64,000 nt of DNA from Bacillota bacterium (GTDB lineage: Bacteria > Bacillota > Clostridia > Christensenellales > UBA3700). The translations under genes were made by a program, and so were the position numbers. The notes under the pieces are model-generated. The model was not told the DNA's origin. It was given only the letters and a program-made list of their open reading frames with translations, and did no database searches. The stretch spans positions 97,718 to 161,717 of the forward strand of contig JAEWXG010000012.1 in the NCBI GenBank assembly GCA_023396095.1, in the 5' to 3' direction. Positions 5,508 through 15,831 of the stretch are shown piece after piece (position 1 is the stretch's first letter; every line of letters begins with the position of its first letter).

Positions 5508-5660
5508 TAATATATATATACTATTATTCATACACCTATAAATACTACTATTTTTATACCTTAAGTATCAAAAACGATGATAATGTCATTAATTATTACT
5601 GTTTTATTATCAAGTAAAAAATAGCCAATGCTTTCGTATCAGCCATTCTTAACTCCAATG
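5508..5660 (+). repeat. left copy of a diverged ~150-bp direct repeat (partner 15590-15747)
   Basis: Conserved blocks are ATACACCTATAAATACTACTATTTTTATACC and AAAAAATAGCCAATGCTTTCGTATCAGCCATTCTTAACTCCAATG versus the tRNA-distal sequence at 15610-15747. Identity is roughly 70% by eye. Confidence 0.7.
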
Positions 5661-5752
5661 TGTAAGGTAAGTTTAAATAATACTGCACCCTGTTTTGACC
5701 GATGCACCCTCTCTTGTATCAAATGCACTTACCTTAGTCCTGTGATGTAATT

Positions 5753-5861
5753 GCATTCAACACAAGAATTTTCTGTATCAAATAAGCTTACTTTTCTCCT
5801 GAAGCCAAACTGTATTCAATACAAGCATTTTGTATCGAATAAGCCTACTCATCTTCTGAAG
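5753..5861 (+). repeat. two tandem ~50-nt units (period 59 nt)
   Basis: GCATTCAACACAAGAATTTTCTGTATCAAATAAGCTTACTTTTCTCCTGAAG (5753-5804) versus GTATTCAATACAAGCATTTTGTATCGAATAAGCCTACTCATCTTCTGAAG (5812-5861). 42 of 50 aligned positions are identical. Confidence 0.8.
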
Positions 5862-5981
5862 AGTAGGTGCCTAAGGGGTTCAACCCTCGGCTGGTTGTGT
5901 GTGGTAAGTCTATTTGATACATGCACCCTCTAAAACTATAAATGCACCCTCAAAACCATTGTTTTCAGCACTTACCCCTAT

Positions 5982-6012
5982 GTGACACGTGACAAACGTG
6001 ACAGTTGTGACA
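5982..6012 (+). repeat. left terminal hexamer array: 4 x GTGACA, start-to-start spacing 7, 9, 9 nt
   Basis: GTGACAcGTGACAaacGTGACAgttGTGACA. It is the mirror image of 15470-15500, matching at 25 of 31 positions when the right copy is reverse-complemented. Confidence 0.85.
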
Positions 6013-6130
6013 CTTAGGTTAGGTAGGTGTAATCAATACAAGAAAAGATTTTCAAAACGTATTTGATACAGCGTCTATTTTTCTCCTCACGTTTATCTTT
6101 TCTCCCCATTATTGTGCATTTTGGTGACAA

Positions 6131-6161
6131 GAAAAAACATCTACCACAATGGATAGATGTC
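6131..6161 (-). terminator. intrinsic terminator of the fic gene
   Basis: On the minus strand ACATCTA-10 nt-TAGATGT is followed by TTTTTT, and it begins 5 nt after the fic stop codon (6166-6168). Confidence 0.65.
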
Positions 6162-6165
6162 ATTT

Positions 6166-7212
6166 TTATTTTGAAATAATGTAATATGTTGCTCTTCCGC
6201 TTCCCATCTTCTTTATTTCTCCAGCATTGCAAAGTTCTTGTAAACTTCTTTCAACGCTTGTAGAACTTAGAGATGGTGCTAGTTCCACAATATCTCGTTT
6301 AGTAAATTTACCAATCTTATTATTTACTGCTTGTCTTACTACTTCAATAGCAGGTTTCTTTTCTTTAACTAATTCTATTCTCTCTTCAAAATCTCTATAT
6401 GCACTTATAATTGTGCTCAATAAATACTTTATAAATGGTGTTGAATCATCCTCATTTTCGTGCCAATTTTTTTGTGAATCATATAATGCATCATAATATA
6501 AATCTTTATTCTTAGCTATCTTAGCTTCTAATGATATATATTTACCAACATAATAACCAGAACGATATAATAAAAGCGTTGTAAGCAATCTAGACATTCT
6601 TCCATTGCCATCAATAAATGGGTGTATACATAAGAAGTCATGAATGAAAATTGGAATTAAAATAAGTGGATCAATCACCCCTTCGCCAATTGCTCTATTA
6701 TATTCATCACATAGATCTTGCATTGCCATTGGTGTTTCAAATGGTGATAAAGGTGTGAACAAAGTATAACTCTTACCACTTTCATCAGTAGCACTAATAT
6801 AGTTTTGAACATTTTTAAATTTACCACCATACGAAGAAGCTGCATGTGATAACAATATTCCATGAAGTTGTAAAATAAAATTAGGTGTTATAGGAATGGA
6901 ATCAAAATTCTCGTGAACTATATTAAGCGCATCTCTATATCCTGCAATTTCTGCTTCTGCTCTATTTTTAGGAGTTGTTTTTTCATTAACTATTTGTCTT
7001 AATCTAGTATTCGTCGTTCTAATACCTTCTATCTCGTTTGAAGATTCAGTACTTTGTATTTTAGCTATTTCAACTAATTTCTCTAATTCTTGAGGTAATT
7101 GTTTTAAATATAACTGTTGTTTTCCTTTTTCTTCATGAATAACAGATAAATAATTAACTATATCAATATCCCATTTAACATCTTTTAATTTGTTATAATC
7201 AAATACCTTCAT
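6166..7212 (-). CDS. fic: Fic family protein (AMPylase-type), class II with an intramolecular inhibitory motif and a C-terminal winged-helix-like region
   Basis: Canonical Fic motif HPFIDGNGRMSRL (HxFx[DE]GNGRxxR). An N-terminal SNEIEG matches the inhibitory [ST]xxxE[GN] motif. RBS GGTGGTGAG. Confidence 0.9.
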   Translation of the reverse strand: MKVFDYNKLKDVKWDIDIVNYLSVIHEEKGKQQLYLKQLPQELEKLVEIAKIQSTESSNEIEGIRTTNTRLRQIVNEKTTPKNRAEAEIAGYRDALNIVHENFDSIPITPNFILQLHGILLSHAASSYGGKFKNVQNYISATDESGKSYTLFTPLSPFETPMAMQDLCDEYNRAIGEGVIDPLILIPIFIHDFLCIHPFIDGNGRMSRLLTTLLLYRSGYYVGKYISLEAKIAKNKDLYYDALYDSQKNWHENEDDSTPFIKYLLSTIISAYRDFEERIELVKEKKPAIEVVRQAVNNKIGKFTKRDIVELAPSLSSTSVERSLQELCNAGEIKKMGSGRATYYIISK

Positions 7213-7241
7213 TTTCTCACCACCATTTCTTTTTTCTCCCC

Positions 7242-7270
7242 AATTATATCACTTTTGGTGCGAAAAATCA
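7242..7270 (-). promoter_or_regulatory. strong promoter candidate for fic
   Basis: Minus strand: TTGATT (7270-7265), 17-nt spacer, TGaTATAAT extended -10 (7250-7242). Confidence 0.6.
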
Positions 7271-7333
7271 ATGTTTTTTAATAAAATATCATCAGAGCTA
7301 GGTAAAAGTGAAGTTAGGGTTTTTGATTTATTC

Positions 7334-8422
7334 TTAAACTTGATTTTCTTTTAATTTTTGTCTATGACGTGCTTGCCTTTTACGATTAATTGTTCTAACG
7401 CAAGCATCATCTCCACAACACTTTTGATTGTTTCCGTTCTTAATAAACATATTTCCACACACTTCACAATATGATATCTTTTCGCCCGAATCATAAGCAC
7501 CATATTTATCAGTATTTGGATCCTCACTTGGTGCATTTGAAGCTAACAATCTAGCAATACTGTAATAACATATATCAAAAATAGATTCTACATACGCTAC
7601 TAATTCACACTTATTTCTTGAAGTATCATAATATAATGATAGTTTTATTTGAGGAATCATATCTTCAATTTTTTTATAAATATTAATTTTATCTGCTACT
7701 ACTGCTTTTCTAAATTCTTCTTTTGTGTTTAGATGCATATGTGCATGTTCAGCATCTTTTGCTGCTCTTTTTATATCATCCCAATTAGGATCAGCATCAT
7801 ATTTATCAACTATCATAATTAATTCATATTCAGCAAAAAACGGAATTGTATGAAAGAATTCTCCACTTTTTGCATAATTCAATGCCGGTTCAGGATTACC
7901 ATTTAAGCATTCTAAAAAAGCATAAACATATGTAAAAACACTATATAGTTTTGCTAAATCATCAATAAATGTATCAACTTGAAAAACACCATCAGTCCAT
8001 TCTTGAAAATATTTTCTATCCTTCTCCCCTTTTTCAAGTTCTCTATATTTTTCATATAAACTCTCTATATTATAAGGATGAAAATATTCTTTGCACCAAT
8101 TCATAATTAAAGAAGCTACTTTAGTATCAGTTATAGGGCCTTTAAAATTTATTTCTTCTGCTAGATTACATAAAGATACTATTAGCTTTTTACCTGTTAA
8201 TCCTAAATCAATATCTAAGTCTGGTGCTTCATATGGATCAAGTGGATATATTATTTTTCCTTTTATTCCTTTATTAACGATATTAGCTTGATCATCATAA
8301 TCATAATCTTTAAATTTTACGCATTTATAAACAATCTCACCTACTCCACCAATATCAACTAAGCCTAGATGCTTATTATTGGCTTTGGGGAAGGTGATTT
8401 TTTTCTTTCTAATATATGCCAT
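7334..8422 (-). CDS. orphan 362-aa protein with a C-terminal CxxC...CC...C zinc-ribbon and basic tail
   Basis: The ORF is open to 8536, but ATG 8422 (MAYIRKKK) has a GGTGA RBS-like element while the 8536 ATG has none. C-terminus: CEVCGNMFIKNGNNQKCCGDDACVRTINRKRQARHRQK. I can name no family with confidence. Confidence 0.6.
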   Translation of the reverse strand: MAYIRKKKITFPKANNKHLGLVDIGGVGEIVYKCVKFKDYDYDDQANIVNKGIKGKIIYPLDPYEAPDLDIDLGLTGKKLIVSLCNLAEEINFKGPITDTKVASLIMNWCKEYFHPYNIESLYEKYRELEKGEKDRKYFQEWTDGVFQVDTFIDDLAKLYSVFTYVYAFLECLNGNPEPALNYAKSGEFFHTIPFFAEYELIMIVDKYDADPNWDDIKRAAKDAEHAHMHLNTKEEFRKAVVADKINIYKKIEDMIPQIKLSLYYDTSRNKCELVAYVESIFDICYYSIARLLASNAPSEDPNTDKYGAYDSGEKISYCEVCGNMFIKNGNNQKCCGDDACVRTINRKRQARHRQKLKENQV

Positions 8423-8439
8423 TTTATCACCATTTTCTT

Positions 8440-8458
8440 TGTCACGTTTTATGTCACG
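8440..8458 (-). promoter_or_regulatory. two CGTGACA boxes directly upstream of the orphan gene start
   Basis: The plus strand reads TGTCACGTTTTATGTCACGTTTT, a 12-nt direct repeat (boxes at 8440-8446 and 8452-8458). This is the same hexamer as the element-end arrays. Confidence 0.5.
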
Positions 8459-8662
8459 TTTTGAGATGTTCTCTTTCGTTACATTATATCGTAAAATGGT
8501 AGCGAAAACAAGAGATTTAACGGATTTTAGTTTCATTTAATTACTAGTCGTTAAAACAAGTTTCACCCAATTAATTGTTTAACGGTTAATAGTTGCTTGA
8601 TTCTAAATTGGGTAAGTCCTTAAATCTCTTGAATTCAAACATTATTAATGGAGGAAAACAAA

Positions 8663-8863
8663 ATGGAAAAACAAACTATTAGTGTTCAAGAACTAGCCAA
8701 ACAACTTGGTATTTCTGTTCCTAAAGCCTATGAATTAACTAGAACTCCTAACTTCCCTTCAATAAGAATTGGGACAAGAATAATAATTCCAATTGAGGAA
8801 TTTAAAAGATGGTTAAAAGAGACTAGTTTAAAAGAAGGTGCTAATGATGAAGATAAGTTATAA
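8663..8863 (+). CDS. excisionase-family helix-turn-helix DNA-binding protein
   Basis: 66 aa from the ATG preceded by GGAGGAAAACAAA. ISVQELAKQLGISVPKAYELTRTPNFPSIRIGTRIIIPIEEFKRWL matches the excisionase/MerR-type HTH pattern. Confidence 0.75.
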   Translation: MEKQTISVQELAKQLGISVPKAYELTRTPNFPSIRIGTRIIIPIEEFKRWLKETSLKEGANDEDKL

Positions 8864-11135
8864 AATCTTTTATTCTAATTGCATCCACCAATATAGCAAT
8901 TGCCTCTATCCTCATGAGATAGATGTTACTGATATTGAATCTTTAAAGAAAGCAGTATCTTTCGATTACGTGTGTGCGAAATATAAGGATAACTATAGGT
9001 CTATCGCAAATTTCACTTCTTCTAATTGTATTGGAGTAGATTTTGATAACGATCATTCTAATAATCCTGAAGATTGGGTTACATCTAATTCAATTAAAGA
9101 AATGTTTAGTGGTGTACCCTATTTAGTTCACTATTCTAAATCACATATGAAACCTAAAATTGGAGCATGTAAAACCGAATATGGCCCTAGACCTAGATTT
9201 CATGTCATTTTCTTAATTGATGAAATAAATAATGCTGATGAATATAAAGCCCTAAAAGATAAATTATTTGATTATTGTCCTTTAATTGATCCAATGGCTA
9301 AAGACTCAGCAAGACTTCTGGCAGGAACACCTAATCCTATAGTTGAATGGCATGATGGAACTATCACATTAAATCAATTTTTAGATGATGTATTTAGTGA
9401 AAAAGCATTTGAAGAATTAGGTGAAGTTATACCTGAAGGAAATCGTAATGCTACGATGCATAAGATTGCTTGTTCTTTACTAGTTAAATATGGAATTACC
9501 GAAGAATCTAAATCTAAATATAGGGAAGCATCAAAAAAATGTAATCCCCCACTAGAAAAGGATGAATTAAATACAATTTGGAAGAGTGCAGCTAAATTCT
9601 ATAAGAATAAAGTTGTTACTAATCCAGAATATAAAAAGCCTGAAGAATATAACAGCCAATCTGTTATAAAGTGGGATACCCCTATTCCATTTGAAAAACC
9701 TAAATTACCTACATTTCCTGTAGATGCATTACCTAAAATTATAAGAGATTATGTTGTTGCGGTAGCTGAAACAACACAAACACCTGTTGATATGGCTGCT
9801 ACTGCTTCACTTGCTATTATGTCTTTATGTATGCAAGGAAGATATAGAGTTGAAGGTAAAGTGGATTGGGATGAACCAGTTAATCTATATACATTAATAA
9901 TTGCCGAACCTAGCGAAAGAAAATCAGCCATTATTGGTTTTATGACAAGACCGGTTAATGAATATGAACTTGAATACAATAGATTAAATGGTGCTAGATT
10001 TGAGTCATCACGTATTCATAAATCAGCGCTTGAAATTAGAAAGAAATCTATTGAGTCTCAATTTGCTAAAGGCAAAGTTACTGATATAGAGGTTGAAGAA
10101 ATATCAAAGAAGCTACATGACTTTAAAGAATTAAAACCTAAGAAGATTTATGTAGATGATATTACAACTGAAAAGCTCGCATCAGTACTTGCTGATTCAG
10201 ACGGTAAAACAGCCGTTATTTCAACAGAAGGTGGTATATTTGATGTTTTAGCTGGTATGTATAACAAAAGCGTTAATATTGACGTTTTCTTAAAGAGTTA
10301 TTCAGGAGATGCAATTAGGATTGATAGAATTGGACGTCAATCAGAACTAATTCAAAAACCAGCATTAACAATACTTCTTTCTGTTCAACCAAGTGTCCTA
10401 TCTTCACTTATTAGTAATACTACATTTGAAGGTAAAGGACTTACTACTAGATTCTTATATGCATTACCAGAATCATTAATTGGTAAAAGAAAATTTAACA
10501 CTTCTCCTATTCCATCTGAAGTATCACGTCTATATGACATGAAAATTAAAGATGTATTAAATGAAGAAGAAAACTTAATTGATAATCAAATCATTAGACA
10601 AAGTAAGGAATCAAAATCTTTATTTCAAGCGTTCCATGATGAAAATGAAAAAATCATGGGTGAAGATACTGAAATAAAAGCATGGCGAGGAAAACTAGTT
10701 GGTAATGTTTTAAGAATAGCTGCACTACTTGCAAGATTTAATATGGATCGATTTAATCCATTCTTTGATGAAACACCTGAAGTTATCGTATCAAAGGATG
10801 ATATGGCTAATGCTATTACAATTGGAAAATATTATATCGAGCATGCGAAAGCTTCATATTCACTTATGGGAATAGATCCTATTAATAAAAAATGTGAATA
10901 TGTATTAAGCAAAATAAAAGAACATAACTTCTATGAATTCGCAAATAGAGATATCACAAGAGCTTGTGGTACTAAAGACTTACGAACTTTAGAAGGAATG
11001 TTACCGGTTTTAAATAGATTAATTGAATATGGATACATCCAGCCTAAAACTGATAAAAAGAATAATACTTCATATTTAACTAATCCAATAATATTTAGTC
11101 AAAACAATAAGGAGGAACAAAATAATGATGACTAG
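8844..11135 (+). CDS. AEP-type primase (PriCT-like middle region) fused to a DUF3987 helicase-like domain
   Basis: IGVDFDNDH and PRFHVIFLI are AEP primase motifs. NATMHKIACSLL...NPPLEKDELNTIWKSAAKFY is PriCT-like. FPVDALPKIIRDYVVAVAETTQTPVDMAATASLAIMS is typical of the DUF3987 N-terminus. The ATG at 8844 follows GGTG; the track start at 8838 is a GTG. Confidence 0.75.
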   Translation: MMKISYKIFYSNCIHQYSNCLYPHEIDVTDIESLKKAVSFDYVCAKYKDNYRSIANFTSSNCIGVDFDNDHSNNPEDWVTSNSIKEMFSGVPYLVHYSKSHMKPKIGACKTEYGPRPRFHVIFLIDEINNADEYKALKDKLFDYCPLIDPMAKDSARLLAGTPNPIVEWHDGTITLNQFLDDVFSEKAFEELGEVIPEGNRNATMHKIACSLLVKYGITEESKSKYREASKKCNPPLEKDELNTIWKSAAKFYKNKVVTNPEYKKPEEYNSQSVIKWDTPIPFEKPKLPTFPVDALPKIIRDYVVAVAETTQTPVDMAATASLAIMSLCMQGRYRVEGKVDWDEPVNLYTLIIAEPSERKSAIIGFMTRPVNEYELEYNRLNGARFESSRIHKSALEIRKKSIESQFAKGKVTDIEVEEISKKLHDFKELKPKKIYVDDITTEKLASVLADSDGKTAVISTEGGIFDVLAGMYNKSVNIDVFLKSYSGDAIRIDRIGRQSELIQKPALTILLSVQPSVLSSLISNTTFEGKGLTTRFLYALPESLIGKRKFNTSPIPSEVSRLYDMKIKDVLNEEENLIDNQIIRQSKESKSLFQAFHDENEKIMGEDTEIKAWRGKLVGNVLRIAALLARFNMDRFNPFFDETPEVIVSKDDMANAITIGKYYIEHAKASYSLMGIDPINKKCEYVLSKIKEHNFYEFANRDITRACGTKDLRTLEGMLPVLNRLIEYGYIQPKTDKKNNTSYLTNPIIFSQNNKEEQNNDD

Positions 11136-11511
11136 AACAGATAAAAATATCGCCTGGGATGTTATTTCAGGTATGTTAGGTAGAAGAATAAAAAGAAATA
11201 GTGATTTTACATTCATGGTTGATGATCACTATAGGCTTGAAATTAATGTGCCATTAAGACAAGACAAGGATGAAGTTATGCTAAATGCAGAATTATATTG
11301 TGATAATGGACCAGCTATATATGTAATTGAAGGTATTCCATCTGATGAAATATGGCAAGTAACTGATGGACTTGATGCCATCATAAATAATCTTAAATCT
11401 AAAATCATAACTGATGCCGATAGAGAATTACAAAAAAACGATGGCTATATGTTTTTAAGTTTTAAAGAATTTCAGTCACATTTGTCACGTGTCACAAACA
11501 TGTACAAATAA
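11125..11511 (+). CDS. hypothetical protein (128 aa)
   Basis: AGGAGG RBS 9 nt upstream and an 11-nt overlap with the primase gene. No recognisable motif. The 3' end encodes an internal GTGACA-type array. Confidence 0.5.
   Translation: MMTRTDKNIAWDVISGMLGRRIKRNSDFTFMVDDHYRLEINVPLRQDKDEVMLNAELYCDNGPAIYVIEGIPSDEIWQVTDGLDAIINNLKSKIITDADRELQKNDGYMFLSFKEFQSHLSRVTNMYK
11474..11495 (-). repeat. internal hexamer array (3 boxes, spacing 9 and 7 nt) in the same orientation as the right element end
   Basis: The plus strand reads AGTCACattTGTCACgTGTCAC; the reverse complement is GTGACAcGTGACAaatGTGACT. Confidence 0.7.
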
Positions 11512-11778
11512 TTATTGATGCCTCTTCCCTCTAGAATATATTTTCTAGGGGGTAGGCCCCATTCTATCTCTGGGACTAAATTATAGGACATCGGCCTGGG
11601 GTTTCACGCGCAACTTCGCGAAATCAAAGAGGGTATATCCCCCTATTCGTTAAAACACTATTTCTGATTTTCAAAGTCCTAAATTTGCCGTTATTTCGCT
11701 ACAATTTGAAATACCTATAATTAGCCGTAGAGGTCTTAATAACTTGAAATAATCGCACATAAGGAGGTTTAACGGGAA

Positions 11779-12162
11779 ATGAACGATAAAGAAAGAAATA
11801 AAGTTATTAAATTAAGAAATCAAGGTGTAATGCCTTCTGAAATATCTAAAATTACTGGAATAAAGATAGAAACAATCAAATCTTATTTCAAACGACATAA
11901 AAATTTATTACCTAAAAGTGCTACTTGTAAATACTGTGGTAAGAAAATAGTTTCTATTAGAGGTAAGAAAAATAAAAAGTTTTGTTCGGATAAGTGCCGC
12001 ATGGCTTATTGGAATTCACATCCTGAGCTTATTAATAAACAAGCTTACTACAAATTAACATGCGAATATTGTGGGAAGGAGTTTTTAAGTTATGGAAATA
12101 AAAGACGTAAATTCTGCTCAAGGGAATGCTACAAGAAGTCTCTTAGAAAAATACAAATCTAA
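11779..12162 (+). CDS. HTH (sigma-70 region-4-like) protein with two FCS-like zinc-ribbon modules
   Basis: AGGAGG RBS. The N-terminus VIKLRNQGVMPSEISKITGIKIETIKSYFKRH looks like an HTH. It is followed by CKYCGKKI...KFCSDKC and CEYCGKEF...KFCSREC. Confidence 0.65.
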   Translation: MNDKERNKVIKLRNQGVMPSEISKITGIKIETIKSYFKRHKNLLPKSATCKYCGKKIVSIRGKKNKKFCSDKCRMAYWNSHPELINKQAYYKLTCEYCGKEFLSYGNKRRKFCSRECYKKSLRKIQI

Positions 12163-12366
12163 TAATCTTATTGTTTATAACATAAGCATAACAATTCTTG
12201 AGGCACTACATAAAAATGGTGTTTTAAATGATGAAGATTTCATAGATTCTTCTTCTTTAGTTGCAGCTAATCATGGGCTTAAAAATACCTCAATTTTCGT
12301 ATCAAATTAACTTGATATAAATCCCCTTTAGAGTGATATATATGTATGACCAAAAGGAGGATTATC

Positions 12367-12570
12367 ATGGATAATTTAAAGCAACAATTATTTAAACTTT
12401 GTGAAGAACACAAAACCAGTACTGAGGGGATTAATTACTTAATCAAATATTATATTAATTCCCTCGGCTGGACTGAGGAGGAAGCCATTAAATATGCAAT
12501 AAAACTATTTGATAATGGCACCATTGATGAAATAAAAATTATAGGAGGTAACGATGGACAGGATAATTAA
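12367..12570 (+). CDS. small hypothetical protein (67 aa)
   Basis: ATG 12367 lies 6 nt after AGGAGG. It overlaps the first recombinase start by 17 nt, which suggests coupling. Confidence 0.45.
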   Translation: MDNLKQQLFKLCEEHKTSTEGINYLIKYYINSLGWTEEEAIKYAIKLFDNGTIDEIKIIGGNDGQDN

Positions 12571-13885
12571 CCAAGTTGAATTTAATAATCAAAATAACAA
12601 TAAAATATTAAGTGTTGCTGCATATGCTCGTGTATCAGTAGATAAAGAAGCTATGCACCATTCACTTGTAGCTCAAATCGATTATTACAAACAATTAATA
12701 GAAAACAATCCTAAATGGAAATTGTATGACATTTATGTTGATGAAGGAATTACAGGTACAACTGAATCGAGAAATTCATTTCAAAAAATGATTGATGATG
12801 CAATAAATGGCAACATTGATTTAATCATTACAAAATCAATTACTAGATTCGCCCGTAATACTGTAACTTTACTTGAAACAGTTAGAAAGCTTAAAGCTAA
12901 TAACATTGAAGTATATTTTGAAGAACAAAACATTCATACCCTATCAAAAGATGGTGAACTTCTTCTAACTATTCTAGCATCGTATGCTCAAGAAGAATCT
13001 AGATCAGTTTCAGAAAATATGAAATGGAGAGTTAAAAAGAATTTTGAAGAAGGCTTATCTTGGGGTACTCATCTATATGGTTACAAATATAAAGATAACA
13101 AATATGAAATCATTCCCGAAGAAGCTAATGTTGTTAAAAAGATATTTGATTTATATCTTGAAGGTAATGGTGTTCAAGCTATTACTAAAGCACTTGAATT
13201 AGAAGGCATAAAAACCAGAAATAATATTCCTTTCTCTAAATCAACAATTAGAGCCATGTTATCAAATGAATACTATACTGGTGATAAGATACTTCAAAAG
13301 ACTTATAGAAAAGATTTTATTTCCAAAAGAACCCTAGCCAACAATGGAGAACTTACTAAATATTACGTTGAAAATTCTCATGAAGGTATTATTTCTAAAG
13401 ATGATTTTAATAAGGTTCAAGAAATGTTAAAAGCCAAAAAAGATAAAATCAATTGGAAAGTCGATAAGCCATTAATATTACCATTTAGTGGAATAATTGA
13501 ATGTGGTTGTTGTGGCAAACATTATTCAAGGAAAACGACTCCATATAAGCATATTTGGCTTTGTAGAACCGTTAATGATAAAGGAATAAATGAATGTAAT
13601 TCTAAACAGGTTCCAGAAGAAATATTATTTGAAACTGCCAACAAAATATTAGGTACTACTTCTTTTGATGAAAAATTATTTATAAAGAAAATAGAAAAGA
13701 TTATTGTTCAAAAAGATAACATCTTAACTTATTCATTTAAAGATGGAACATCAAAAGATATTAAATGGGAAAATAAATCTAGAAGTCTTTCTTGGACTCC
13801 TGAAAAGAAAGCTAAAGCACGCCAAAGAACATTAGAACAACATAAACAAAGGAGGGATACGAATGGCGAAAGTAACAGTAATTAA
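12554..13885 (+). CDS. large serine recombinase 1 (443 aa)
   Basis: Resolvase catalytic domain AAYARVSVD...TKSITRFARN...AQEESRS, a recombinase domain, and the zinc ribbon CGCCGKHYSRK...WLCR. GGAGG RBS. Confidence 0.9.
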   Translation: MDRIINQVEFNNQNNNKILSVAAYARVSVDKEAMHHSLVAQIDYYKQLIENNPKWKLYDIYVDEGITGTTESRNSFQKMIDDAINGNIDLIITKSITRFARNTVTLLETVRKLKANNIEVYFEEQNIHTLSKDGELLLTILASYAQEESRSVSENMKWRVKKNFEEGLSWGTHLYGYKYKDNKYEIIPEEANVVKKIFDLYLEGNGVQAITKALELEGIKTRNNIPFSKSTIRAMLSNEYYTGDKILQKTYRKDFISKRTLANNGELTKYYVENSHEGIISKDDFNKVQEMLKAKKDKINWKVDKPLILPFSGIIECGCCGKHYSRKTTPYKHIWLCRTVNDKGINECNSKQVPEEILFETANKILGTTSFDEKLFIKKIEKIIVQKDNILTYSFKDGTSKDIKWENKSRSLSWTPEKKAKARQRTLEQHKQRRDTNGESNSN

Positions 13886-15437
13886 GCCTACAATTAATCC
13901 ACATACTCATATTTCAATTAATGCACCACATAAAAGACGTGTAGCTGCATATGCTAGAGTTTCAACAGATCAAGATGAACAATTCACTTCATATGAAGCT
14001 CAAATTGATTATTATACTAAATATATAAAAGCTAATGATGAATGGGAATTTGTAAAAGTATATACTGATGAAGGTATTAGTGGTACATCTACAAAAAGAC
14101 GTGATGGATTTAAACAAATGATTGATGATGCTTTGTCAGGCAAAATCGATTTAATTGTTACTAAATCAATATCTCGTTTTGCAAGAAACACTGTTGATGC
14201 ATTAGTTAATATTAGAAATTTAAAAGATAAAGGTGTTGAAGTGTTTTTTGAAAAAGAAAACATTTATACCTTCGGTACTGGTGGAGAGCTTCTTCTTACC
14301 ATCATGTCATCAATTGCACAGGAAGAATCTAGATCTATATCAGAAAATGTTACTTGGGGTAAAAGAAAAGCATTTCAAGATGGAAAAGTAGCTCTTCCCT
14401 ATAAATGCTTTTTAGGTTATAAAAAAGGTGAAAATGGTCTACCTGAAATTGAACCTAATGGTGCAGAACTTGTAAGAAGGATTTATAGGATGTTTATTGA
14501 AGGTAAAAGCCAATCAACAATTGCTAGAATCCTAACTGAAGAAAAGATACCTACTCCAGGAGGCAAAACAAAATGGCAATATAATGTCATCGATTCTATT
14601 TTAAGAAATGAAAAATATAAAGGTTCTGCACTTCTTCAAAAGAAATATACAGTAGATTTTCTAACTAAAAAACTTAAAAAGAATAATGGTGAAGTAGCAC
14701 AATATTATGTTGAAGATTCTCATCCAGCAATTATAGAACCTGATGAATGGGAACTAGTACAAGCTGAACTTGAATTAAGAGATGAAACTCAAATAAGGAA
14801 CCGAAGAGATAATGTATTATCTGGTAGAGTCATATGTGCTGATTGTGGTTCTATTTATGGACCTAAAGTATGGCATTCAAATGATGCATATAGACATGTC
14901 GTATGGCAATGCAATAATAAGTTTAACGGCACTAAATGCACTACTCCTACTCTTGATGAAGAAACAATTAGAAATGCTTATTTAAAGGCATTAAACATTC
15001 TTTTAAAAGATAAAGATAAACTCATTTCTAATCTCCTTCTTGTTAAAGAAAAACTACTAGATGTTAATCTATCTAAGCCTATTGAAAAAGCCAAGAATGA
15101 AATGCTAGTAGTTAGTGGTTTATGTGACCAACATGTTTTTAACAAAGAAAAGAAATTAAAGAACAGCCAAGAATACATGGATGAATATATTGAACTAGTA
15201 AAAAGATTCACTGCAGCACAAGATGAATATGGAAGATTAATTGATGAACAAGTAACTCGTAATAGAAAGTCAGTTAAACTACAAGCCTTCATTGATGAGA
15301 TTAAAAATGCAGATGCACTTAATCTAGAATTTAATGATAGACTCTTCAATTTAACTGTTTTAAATATTAAAGTACATAAAGAAAACCATCTCGAATTCAA
15401 TTTCAAAGATGGCTCCATAATTAATATTGATTTATAG
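13863..15437 (+). CDS. large serine recombinase 2 (524 aa) with a long K/E/L-rich (coiled-coil-like) C-terminal region
   Basis: AAYARVSTD...TKSISRFARN...AQEESRS, then CADCGSIYGPK...WQCNNKFNGTKC. It is a paralogue of recombinase 1 and overlaps it by 23 nt. AGGAGG RBS. Confidence 0.9.
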   Translation: MAKVTVIKPTINPHTHISINAPHKRRVAAYARVSTDQDEQFTSYEAQIDYYTKYIKANDEWEFVKVYTDEGISGTSTKRRDGFKQMIDDALSGKIDLIVTKSISRFARNTVDALVNIRNLKDKGVEVFFEKENIYTFGTGGELLLTIMSSIAQEESRSISENVTWGKRKAFQDGKVALPYKCFLGYKKGENGLPEIEPNGAELVRRIYRMFIEGKSQSTIARILTEEKIPTPGGKTKWQYNVIDSILRNEKYKGSALLQKKYTVDFLTKKLKKNNGEVAQYYVEDSHPAIIEPDEWELVQAELELRDETQIRNRRDNVLSGRVICADCGSIYGPKVWHSNDAYRHVVWQCNNKFNGTKCTTPTLDEETIRNAYLKALNILLKDKDKLISNLLLVKEKLLDVNLSKPIEKAKNEMLVVSGLCDQHVFNKEKKLKNSQEYMDEYIELVKRFTAAQDEYGRLIDEQVTRNRKSVKLQAFIDEIKNADALNLEFNDRLFNLTVLNIKVHKENHLEFNFKDGSIINIDL

Positions 15438-15465
15438 AACTCTAGTTTTGGTGGCTAGAGTTTTT
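15438..15465 (+). terminator. intrinsic terminator after recombinase 2
   Basis: AACTCTAG (15438-15445) pairs with CTAGAGTT (15455-15462) and runs into TTTTT. It starts immediately after the TAG stop. Confidence 0.65.
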
Positions 15466-15469
15466 AATT

Positions 15470-15500
15470 TGTCTCGTTTGTCACGCGTGTCACGTGTCAC
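15470..15500 (-). repeat. right terminal hexamer array (mirror of 5982-6012)
   Basis: The plus strand reads TGTCTCgttTGTCACgcgTGTCACgTGTCAC; the reverse complement is GTGACAcGTGACAcgcGTGACAaacGAGACA. Confidence 0.85.
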
Positions 15501-15589
15501 GTAGGGGTATATGTAAAAATTGATATTTACTCCTATAAGTATTCTTATATATAGTAAGTAGTAGTTTAACGAATAATAATAATTTAACG

Positions 15590-15747
15590 ATATAATTATA
15601 TATATTACTATCTATATACCTATAACTACTACTATTTTTATACCTAAGGCAACAATAATTATCATAATTGCTATAAATATTGCAGTTTTACCCATATATA
15701 AAGAAAAAAATAGCCGATATTTTCGTATCAGCTATACTTAACTCTAA
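15590..15747 (+). repeat. right copy of the diverged direct repeat; contains the tRNA-Leu terminator
   Basis: See 5508-5660. The minus-strand hairpin AUAGCUGAUA-CGAAAA-UAUCGGCUAU followed by a U-run lies just 3' of the tRNA. Confidence 0.7.
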
Positions 15748-15831
15748 TGGTGCGACCAAAGGGACTTGAACCCTTATGTTATTCAACATACGCTCCTCAA
15801 ACGTACGCGTCTGCCATTCCGCCATGGTCGC
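15748..15831 (-). tRNA. tRNA-Leu (anticodon GAG), class II with long variable arm, CCA encoded
   Basis: Hand fold of GCGACCA-TG-GCG-GAATGGCAGA-CGC-G-TACGT-TTGAGGA-GCGTA-TGTTGAATAACAT-AAGGG-TTCAAGT-CCCTT-TGGTCGC-ACCA. All stems pair, with one G-U pair. Confidence 0.9.

Follow-up and report, generated by a model that had tools for sequence, protein, structure and literature searches.

Here we consider a short DNA box, GTGACA, that recurs in ordered arrays within what its sequence indicates is a mobile island of ~10 kb, extending from ~5661 or ~5898 to 15749, in the genome of a Clostridia bacterium. Coordinates are those of the 64-kb stretch that was analysed (contig JAEWXG010000012.1, hereafter the window), and the labels L001-L080 denote relatives of the island and pattern matches elsewhere. 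Between the two outermost arrays lie genes for a Fic protein, a 362-amino-acid (362-aa) Zn-ribbon protein, a 71-aa HTH_17 protein and a 765-aa primase-helicase with PriCT_1 and DUF3987 domains, then a 128-aa open reading frame (ORF), an ORF-free region, a 127-aa helix-turn-helix (HTH)/zinc-finger protein, a 74-aa ORF and two large serine recombinases, which presumably insert the island at the CCA end of a tRNA-Leu gene. The boxes occupy four places (Table 1): a left subterminal array, a right subterminal array that is its mirror image, an internal three-box array 340 bp past the helicase stop codon, and a two-box site 18-36 nt upstream of the ATG of the 362-aa ORF.

These arrays had been noticed by a model that read the sequence of this stretch, and this original prediction described the outer pair as terminal inverted repeats bracketing all genes of the element, with further copies at the end of the 128-aa ORF, ahead of the ORF-free region, and, as two CGTGACA boxes 12 nt apart, upstream of the Zn-ribbon gene. 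All four clusters lie where it placed them, and the outer arrays do share the 7-9-9 spacing and match at 25 of 31 positions. The inverted repeat in fact spans 40 nt with 83% complementarity, taking in an outer TACCCCTAy motif, and the internal array matches the first three boxes of the left one at 95% identity. The clustering, which had been called striking, is so against the window-scale background: GTGACA occurs 27 times in the window as against 15.3 +/- 4.0 in shuffles, two clusters hold at least three exact boxes within 31 nt where 300 second-order Markov simulations produced none, and four clusters of at least two boxes within 25 nt compare with a simulated mean of 0.007; chance is excluded as the source of the clustering. 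The arrays also bracket every ORF of at least 50 aa, but as ends of the island they fail, being subterminal rather than terminal. Throughout the family the outermost box of an array comes with a G-rich motif, GGGGGTA(G/T), or TACCCCyAy when read on the opposite strand, which might be a primase start site.

The true ends are visible by comparison with relatives. At the right end, homology continues ~249 bp beyond the array and finishes at ...CTTAACTCTAA^TGG (^ marks the terminus), the TGG being the CCA end of a tRNA or tmRNA gene; ~20 homologous loci stop exactly at this CCA end although the adjoining genes differ (tRNA Leu, Thr, Ala, Gly, Tyr, Pro or Ser, or tmRNA). At the left end, the family consensus reads TG^TGnAGGTAAGT..TTGATACaATGCACCCTC-N12-ATGCACCCTC..ACTTACCCCTAT, followed by the array, so that homology passes the array there too, by 82 bp or more. 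The termini of the island thus fall at 15747-15749 and at ~5898 or 5661. The junction holds an imperfect dyad of its own, ACTTAaCTcTAA-TG-TgTAAGGTAAGT, whose ACTTAAC half resembles, as read from the sequence, the tRNA T-arm GGACTTGAACC; because so many tRNA and tmRNA targets are combined with a T-arm-like junction, we suggest that the recombinase pair targets a conserved tRNA feature. A terminator-like hairpin is carried by the island family at its tRNA/tmRNA-side end.

Since the true termini map outside the arrays, the arrays are not the recombination sites; most likely they mark a replication origin. The contrary proposal, that they are recombinase-bound terminal inverted repeats defining the excision junctions, could appeal to the way the 40-nt inverted repeat brackets all sizeable ORFs and to the position of the right array just after the second recombinase gene. 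Besides the homology that runs past the arrays on both sides and the separate dyad at the real junction, however, arrays and recombinases prove to be uncoupled: L002 has a single recombinase and keeps its arrays, L006 has recombinases 56% identical and no arrays, and L007 is an array-bearing element with a tyrosine integrase. Other elements with these arrays have no recombinase in the part that was examined. We consider this proposal hardly credible.

The arrays themselves are well kept in homologous elements, in subterminal positions. In five relatives fetched via recombinase homologues (L001-L005) both the right and the internal arrays are conserved; when the right ends of ~20 homologous loci are aligned, no block is better conserved than TGTCACgttTGTCACgTGTCACgTGGGGGTAT; and the left array with its outer flank is kept in seven further left ends (L032, L038, L047, L049, L061, L071, L073). 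Arrays are thus conserved at three places: near the left end, behind the helicase gene and near the right end. Even three decayed mini-elements (L061, with a body of 470 bp, L071, and L049 of 3.4 kb) retain both termini and both arrays in mirror orientation, and all four loci of the GTGACA clade with both ends visible have mirrored arrays. The internal array is invariant in L001-L004, L011, L045, L069 and ~20 metagenome loci, whereas the 128-aa proteins encoded there are only 36-74% identical; as the array stays invariant while the overlapping protein falls to 36% identity, this indicates selection on the DNA itself. The two-box site is less constant: it is kept in L001 and L004, which have the same type of 362-aa protein, and absent from L002, L003 and L011, which have a variant 35-38% identical.

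What the arrays might bind is suggested by the primase-helicase. We propose, with a probability of about 0.6, that they are iterons, docking sites for the winged helix of the island's archaeo-eukaryotic primase (AEP)/AAA+ (DUF3987) helicase. Of the roles offered in the original prediction, comparative evidence favours iterons of this helicase over recombinase end sites, and an operator role may apply at the two-box site. An AlphaFold2 model of the helicase (mean predicted local distance difference test score, pLDDT, 81.7) has the AEP fold at its N-terminus, an AAA+ domain in the middle and, C-terminally, a winged helix with helices and strands in the order H-S-H-H-S-S (pLDDT ~75-90), and so predicts a separate domain for binding double-stranded DNA. 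Against the PDB, Foldseek ranked MCM2-7, archaeal MCM, RuvB and the AEP domain of S-2L PrimPol highest; a PDB search with the helicase sequence gave no match, and the fold comparison alone was informative. PriCT-DUF3987 is active as a 5'-3' helicase and has a C-terminal domain of small size (PMC11724360), C-terminal winged-helix domains of primase-helicases have been proposed as origin recognisers (PMC5862659), and in two staphylococcal systems, Rep of the Staphylococcus aureus pathogenicity islands (SaPIs) and Cch2 of the staphylococcal cassette chromosome mec (SCCmec), a C-terminal domain binds short iterons just downstream of the helicase's own gene (PMC7581432).

The association of such arrays with replicative helicases extends far beyond the island family. 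An exact-pattern scan with GTGACACGTGACANNNGTGACA of viral and genome collections returned 72 loci, many outside the family and the phylum, and the GTGACAcGTGACAnnnGTGACA architecture recurs in Bacteroidota, Actinobacteria, Chloroflexi and other Firmicutes. In unrelated elements the array coincides with the 3' end of a primase-helicase gene or lies no more than ~200 bp from it, and this holds for three ATPase families (Table 1). In L050, from one Alistipes metagenome-assembled genome (MAG), an AAA_25 gene stands alone, its product predicted to end in an HTH, with palindromic arrays on both sides and no recombinase gene between them. Mirrored arrays around a 90-110 bp AT-rich spacer, a layout associated with SaPI-type origins, occur in Prevotella/Xylanibacter, Sphaerochaetaceae and some Oscillospiraceae loci. 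On this comparison a replicative primase-helicase would be the common denominator of the array-bearing loci.

This bears on a second alternative, that the arrays bind the 71-aa HTH_17 protein (Xis/AlpA-like) or the 127-aa HTH and zinc-finger protein and serve as excision architecture or directionality sites, as operators, or both. Direct repeats about one helical turn apart and inverted near both ends do resemble the Xis and arm-type accessory sites of integrative elements; the family keeps HTH_17 throughout, and similar proteins are also present in L007/L024 and L015; and the position of the two-box site ahead of the 362-aa gene is operator-like, so that it is mainly here that such a role would apply. 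Most arrays, however, lie at the 3' ends of genes and not at promoters, which an operator role leaves unexplained. Identical 7-9 arrays are present, moreover, in L017/L067, L050, L008 and L036, which yielded neither HTH_17 nor the 127-aa protein nor a serine recombinase (the search for HTH_17-like proteins used simple profiles on 8-kb loci and is of limited sensitivity), while a primase-helicase gene adjoins the array in each of them. Among viral loci, no homologue of the 127-aa protein was detected outside the serine-recombinase elements L009 and L011. The known directionality factors of large serine recombinases act by protein-protein contacts and not through DNA arrays. We regard this alternative as unlikely.

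Two further kinds of array-bearing unit were encountered in the scan. A conserved module of ~140 bp (array, AT-rich spacer, inverted array) directly follows BT4734/VapE genes and is also found alone inside polysaccharide loci, as if these origin modules were scattered or mobile. Multi-copy units bounded by palindromic GTGACA arrays and runs of TACCCAT repeats occur next to housekeeping genes such as gyrB and mutS; that of L050 encloses the AAA_25 gene only and that of L027 ~650 bp with no ORF of at least 110 aa, and these units may represent a minimal mobile or replicative unit. Array matches in six loci (L010, L012, L013, L016, L018, L059) fall in one phage coding sequence, GTGACAcGTGACAccgGTGACA, and were set aside as probably coincidental, and matches from Burkholderia (L040), Streptomyces (L060) and Chloroflexi (L039) lie in high-GC coding-like DNA and were left uninterpreted.

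The identity of the box follows the helicase. Among 80 metagenome loci retrieved by means of a helicase alignment, together with the earlier loci, short-wing DUF3987 helicases (..YGYIQxKxxxKKxxSYLxNP) are accompanied by 130 GTGACA boxes and no nGGACA box in 30 loci, and long-wing helicases, with a wing insertion of 6-7 residues (..G.GRP..), by 119 nGGACA boxes at 9-bp spacing and 14 GTGACA boxes in 52 loci. In L079 (52% identity) all three arrays read GTGACAaaaAGGACAgaaAGGACA, that is, they have switched together to GTGACA-AGGACA-AGGACA. Because box sequence tracks helicase clade and the arrays of L079 changed as a set, these comparisons indicate that the binder is encoded by the element and that arrays within an element change in step with one another. 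In long-wing relatives the helicase stop codon is directly followed by a compact origin in which an AT-rich spacer separates two or three TGTCC boxes from three GGACA boxes; the spacer carries ATCGTTAAAyTACTGCT, and the same motif is present in the AT-rich stretch beside the right array of the window (TTTAACGAT/AGTAGT).

The same hexamer and spacing across phyla and helicase families could also be accounted for by a host factor, conserved and recruited by many mobile elements, for instance a protein of the nucleoid or of replication. Yet the box changes with element clade (GTGACA as against nGGACA) among elements of similar gut Firmicutes, all arrays of one element change together, and no known host-factor consensus matches, none having been found in a literature search. 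A host factor is in our judgement very improbable. Nor did the search of the literature for GTGACA in connection with iterons yield a paper describing a GTGACA box.

On the iteron proposal, helicase protomers would load onto an array, one per box at about one helical turn, and the assembled helicase would open the DNA and start replication of the island by a mechanism like that shown for SaPI Rep, SCCmec Cch2 and P4 alpha. The candidate unwinding region is the AT-rich stretch adjoining the right array, which would be bounded by arrays on both sides only on a hypothetical excised circle. There the right array would be followed by the AT-rich region, attP and the left array, in that order, with an expected junction of ...CTTAACTCTAATG^TGTAAGGTAAGT or ^TGTGGTAAGT, and the facing arrays would flank attP, the AT-rich stretch and its TTTAACGAT motif in the layout of the compact origins of relatives. 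Alternatively or in addition, the internal array, with the nearby GGGGGTAGG and lone AGGACA box, could be the origin that fires, in which case the terminal arrays might serve as cis-acting regions comparable to the crr (cis replication region) of P4. The two-box site, more speculatively, might be a low-occupancy site coupling helicase level to transcription. Three points here are inferred: binding of the boxes by the winged helix, the choice of the array or arrays that fire, and completion of the origin only on the circle. Taken a step further, the origin would be split by the attachment site and form a complete palindrome only on the circle, so that excision licenses replication with no dedicated regulator, and a portable module of winged helix and GTGACA 7-9 iterons would have been exchanged among three unrelated helicase ATPase families across phyla; as a joint claim we hold this to be doubtful.

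Several observations weigh against the iteron proposal and what is built on it. The case for it is one of association throughout. In the clade of the window the nearest array is not adjacent to the helicase gene but separated from it by the 128-aa ORF, some array-bearing Prevotella and Sphaerochaetaceae loci have no helicase gene within the 8 kb examined, and the C-terminal domains of the different ATPase families align weakly. The co-variation of box and helicase amounts to few independent clade contrasts, and other proteins of the elements diverge in parallel. The split origin in particular is weakened by two findings: on the excised circle the arrays would be ~570 bp apart (~335 bp in simpler relatives) as against the 25-130 bp spacers of compact origins, and L079 has its left and right arrays as direct repeats, unmirrored, so that a palindromic junction origin is not a feature of the whole family.

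Iteron origins of self-loading helicases are already known. What appears to be new is one box code and spacing common to several phyla and three ATPase families, the dispersal of the arrays with two of them in mirrored subterminal positions, and their context in islands that are moved by serine recombinases and have the CCA ends of many tRNA and tmRNA genes as insertion sites. Should the arrays be iterons of the helicase, an abundant island family of gut Firmicutes would replicate autonomously after excision, as has been proposed for SaPIs and SCCmec, and its mirrored subterminal layout suggests a cheap coupling of replication to excision. The signature GTGACAcGTGACAnnnGTGACA, or nGGACA at 9-bp spacing, could then be used to find origins of primase-helicase elements in several phyla, and the sharing of one box code by three ATPase families would offer a testable case for modular exchange of origin-recognition domains.

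Table 1. Features of the island and its surroundings in window coordinates, with the sets of loci compared (^ marks a terminus).
Feature	Position (strand)	Description
Left subterminal array	5982-6012 (+); with outer motif 5973-6012	Four GTGACA boxes, GTGACAcGTGACAaacGTGACAgttGTGACA; start-to-start spacing 7-9-9; outer motif TACCCCTAT
Right subterminal array	15470-15500 (-); with outer motif 15470-15509	Three GTGACA boxes and one GAGACA; reverse complement GTGACAcGTGACAcgcGTGACAaacGAGACA
Outer motif of right array	15501-15509	TACCCCTAC; + strand GTAGGGGTA
Internal three-box array	11474-11495 (-)	GTGACAcGTGACAaatGTGACt; overlaps last codons of 128-aa ORF
Two-box site	8440-8457 (-)	Two CGTGACA boxes 12 nt apart; 5' region of 362-aa Zn-ribbon gene
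Primase-helicase gene	8838-11135 (+)	765 aa; AEP primase, PriCT_1, DUF3987 AAA+ (Pfam scan)
C-terminal winged helix	~10878-11081	Residues ~681-748; proposed reader of boxes
ORF-free region	11512-11778 (+)	Adjoins internal array; GGGGGTAGG at 11548-11556; lone AGGACA box at 11586-11591
AT-rich stretch	15510-15640	83% AT vs 70% for window; adjoins right array; block TATATATAGTAAGTAGTAGTTTAACGA-N10-TTTAACGAT invariant in family
Right terminus	15697-15749	Conserved terminal block with hairpin; ends ...CTTAACTCTAA^TG, fused to CCA end of tRNA-Leu(GAG)
tRNA-Leu(GAG)	15748-15831 (-)	CCA end abuts island right end (15747-15749)
Proximal left-terminus module	5898-5972	TG^TGTGGTAAGT..TTGATACATGCACCCTC-N12-ATGCACCCTC..; 82 bp outside left array
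Distal left-terminus module	5661-5715	Second copy; 321 bp outside left array; follows right-end remnant
Right-end relic	5513-5660	78-85% identical to island right end; precedes distal left module
59-bp tandem repeat	5715-5831	Within second left-terminus-like module (5661-5897)
GCACCCT direct repeats	5685-5710, 5923-5950	Two pairs, 19-21 nt spacing
27-aa ORF	15612-15695 (-)	MGKTAIFIAIMIIIVALGIKIVVVIGI; between right array and terminus
Fic gene	6166-7212	Cargo
GGGGGTA(G/T) motif	5973-5981, 15501-15509, 11548-11556	Also L079 12300-12330 and L080 12255-12275
TTTAACGR sites	8516-8585	Divergent promoter, 362-aa/HTH_17
TTTAACGR sites	11647-11654, 11768-11775	Near start of 127-aa gene
TTTAACGR sites	15565-15590	Invariant block by right array
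Loci ending at tRNA/tmRNA CCA		L001-L003, L019, L028, L031, L033, L049, L058, L061, L065, L066, L068, L071, L076, L079
DUF3987 helicase loci with array		L008/L014, L015, L017/L067, L044, L054, L036
BT4734 primase + VapE-like ATPase loci with array		L042, L055, L046
AAA_25 loci with array		L007/L024; 65% GC Actinobacteria; boxes inside last codons
Loci with ~140-bp module		L042, L053, L055, L057, L077, L078; Prevotella/Xylanibacter
Loci with multi-copy units		L020, L023, L025, L027, L050, L062, L070 (one Alistipes MAG); L021
Loci compared for cargo		L001-L004, L071, L073, L080

Outside the left array the right-end relic is followed by a second left-terminus module, and on these two grounds the tRNA locus carries debris of earlier or tandem insertions. 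The ~150-bp direct repeat formed by the relic and the island right end (15597-15749) was considered as an att duplication of the kind made by tyrosine integrases and rejected, since the copies are 78-85% identical and fit the right-end consensus of the family. The second left-terminus-like module also contains a 59-bp tandem repeat. Just inside the left terminus lie two pairs of GCACCCT direct repeats that are kept in other left ends, and L009 has five GCACACC repeats at the matching position (~5650-5760); repeats of this type may be bound by a recombinase or by a directionality factor. A very hydrophobic 27-aa ORF, kept in position in relatives, lies between the right array and the right terminus and has a degenerate counterpart around 5530-5600; it may be a type I toxin-like gene or encode a small membrane peptide.

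The ORF-free region is kept in relatives down to 44% helicase identity (GGACAnCGGsCkGGGG...CGCAAAwTCAAAAGGGGwAT) and holds hairpins, and in L079 and L080 the GGGGGTAGG motif directly adjoins the post-helicase array. A search of Rfam at the gathering threshold matched the tRNA alone, so that neither the arrays nor the ORF-free region is explained by a known RNA; the region may be a leader RNA, a promoter or operator, or part of an origin. A second motif, TTTAACGR, is enriched in the window (11 copies against 4.9 expected), with eight of the 11 inside the island, and is a candidate operator of an element regulator.

The cargo of the family varies to the left of a conserved core that runs from the 362-aa gene to the second recombinase in L001-L005. 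Defence-type genes dominate between the left array and this core: Fic in the window, and in relatives bacteriophage exclusion (BREX) systems, type I or II restriction-modification, DUF3800/DUF2971 proteins, a PLD/DpnI-type nuclease, Schlafen/AlbA_2, and Z1/AIPR with a DNA methylase; abortive infection (Abi) is also among the cargo types named for the family. The Fic and Schlafen-like cargo proteins, which lie by the left array and have C-terminal winged helices, were considered as binders of the arrays and rejected, the arrays persisting with entirely different cargo. Exact-sequence look-ups of the Fic protein and of the helicase (P0121) of the window found no match on record.

Known systems share parts of this arrangement. 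In SaPIs the origin has two sets of iterons flanking an AT-rich region. Like SaPI Rep with its iteron origin, the island described here would be an integrated element encoding its own self-loading replicative helicase; unlike it, SaPIs have a helicase of a different family, a tyrosine integrase and an unrelated box, and their single compact internal origin contrasts with three or four dispersed array positions here, two of them subterminal mirror images. The pattern-2 SCCmec elements, with AAGTG iterons between cch2 and ccrC, are similar in being chromosomal cassettes moved by large serine recombinases and equipped with a primase and helicase module, and there three short iterons close to the recombinase gene are bound by the helicase's C-terminal domain (PMC7581432). 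Cch2, however, is a 3'-5' helicase with a Primase_Cterm/D5_N-type domain and not DUF3987, SCC elements insert in rlmH and not at tRNA ends, and they have a single iteron cluster with no mirrored subterminal arrays.

The alpha protein of satellite phage P4 likewise unites primase, helicase and a C-terminal winged-helix DNA-binding domain in one polypeptide, and it binds the same short iteron at ori and at crr several kb away. Alpha differs in having a Toprim-type primase and a superfamily 3 (SF3) helicase, its iteron is TGTTCACC, and its sites are not placed symmetrically beside an attachment site. A more distant likeness is to the origins of simian virus 40 (SV40) large T antigen and papillomavirus E1, in which inverted arrays of short pentamer or hexamer boxes stand on either side of a segment that is AT-rich or melts easily, and a double hexamer nucleates on them head to head, an analogy that has been drawn before (PMC7581432); these are SF3 helicases of eukaryotic viruses with an N-terminal origin-binding domain, and the likeness to the arrays described here is one of layout and not of homology.

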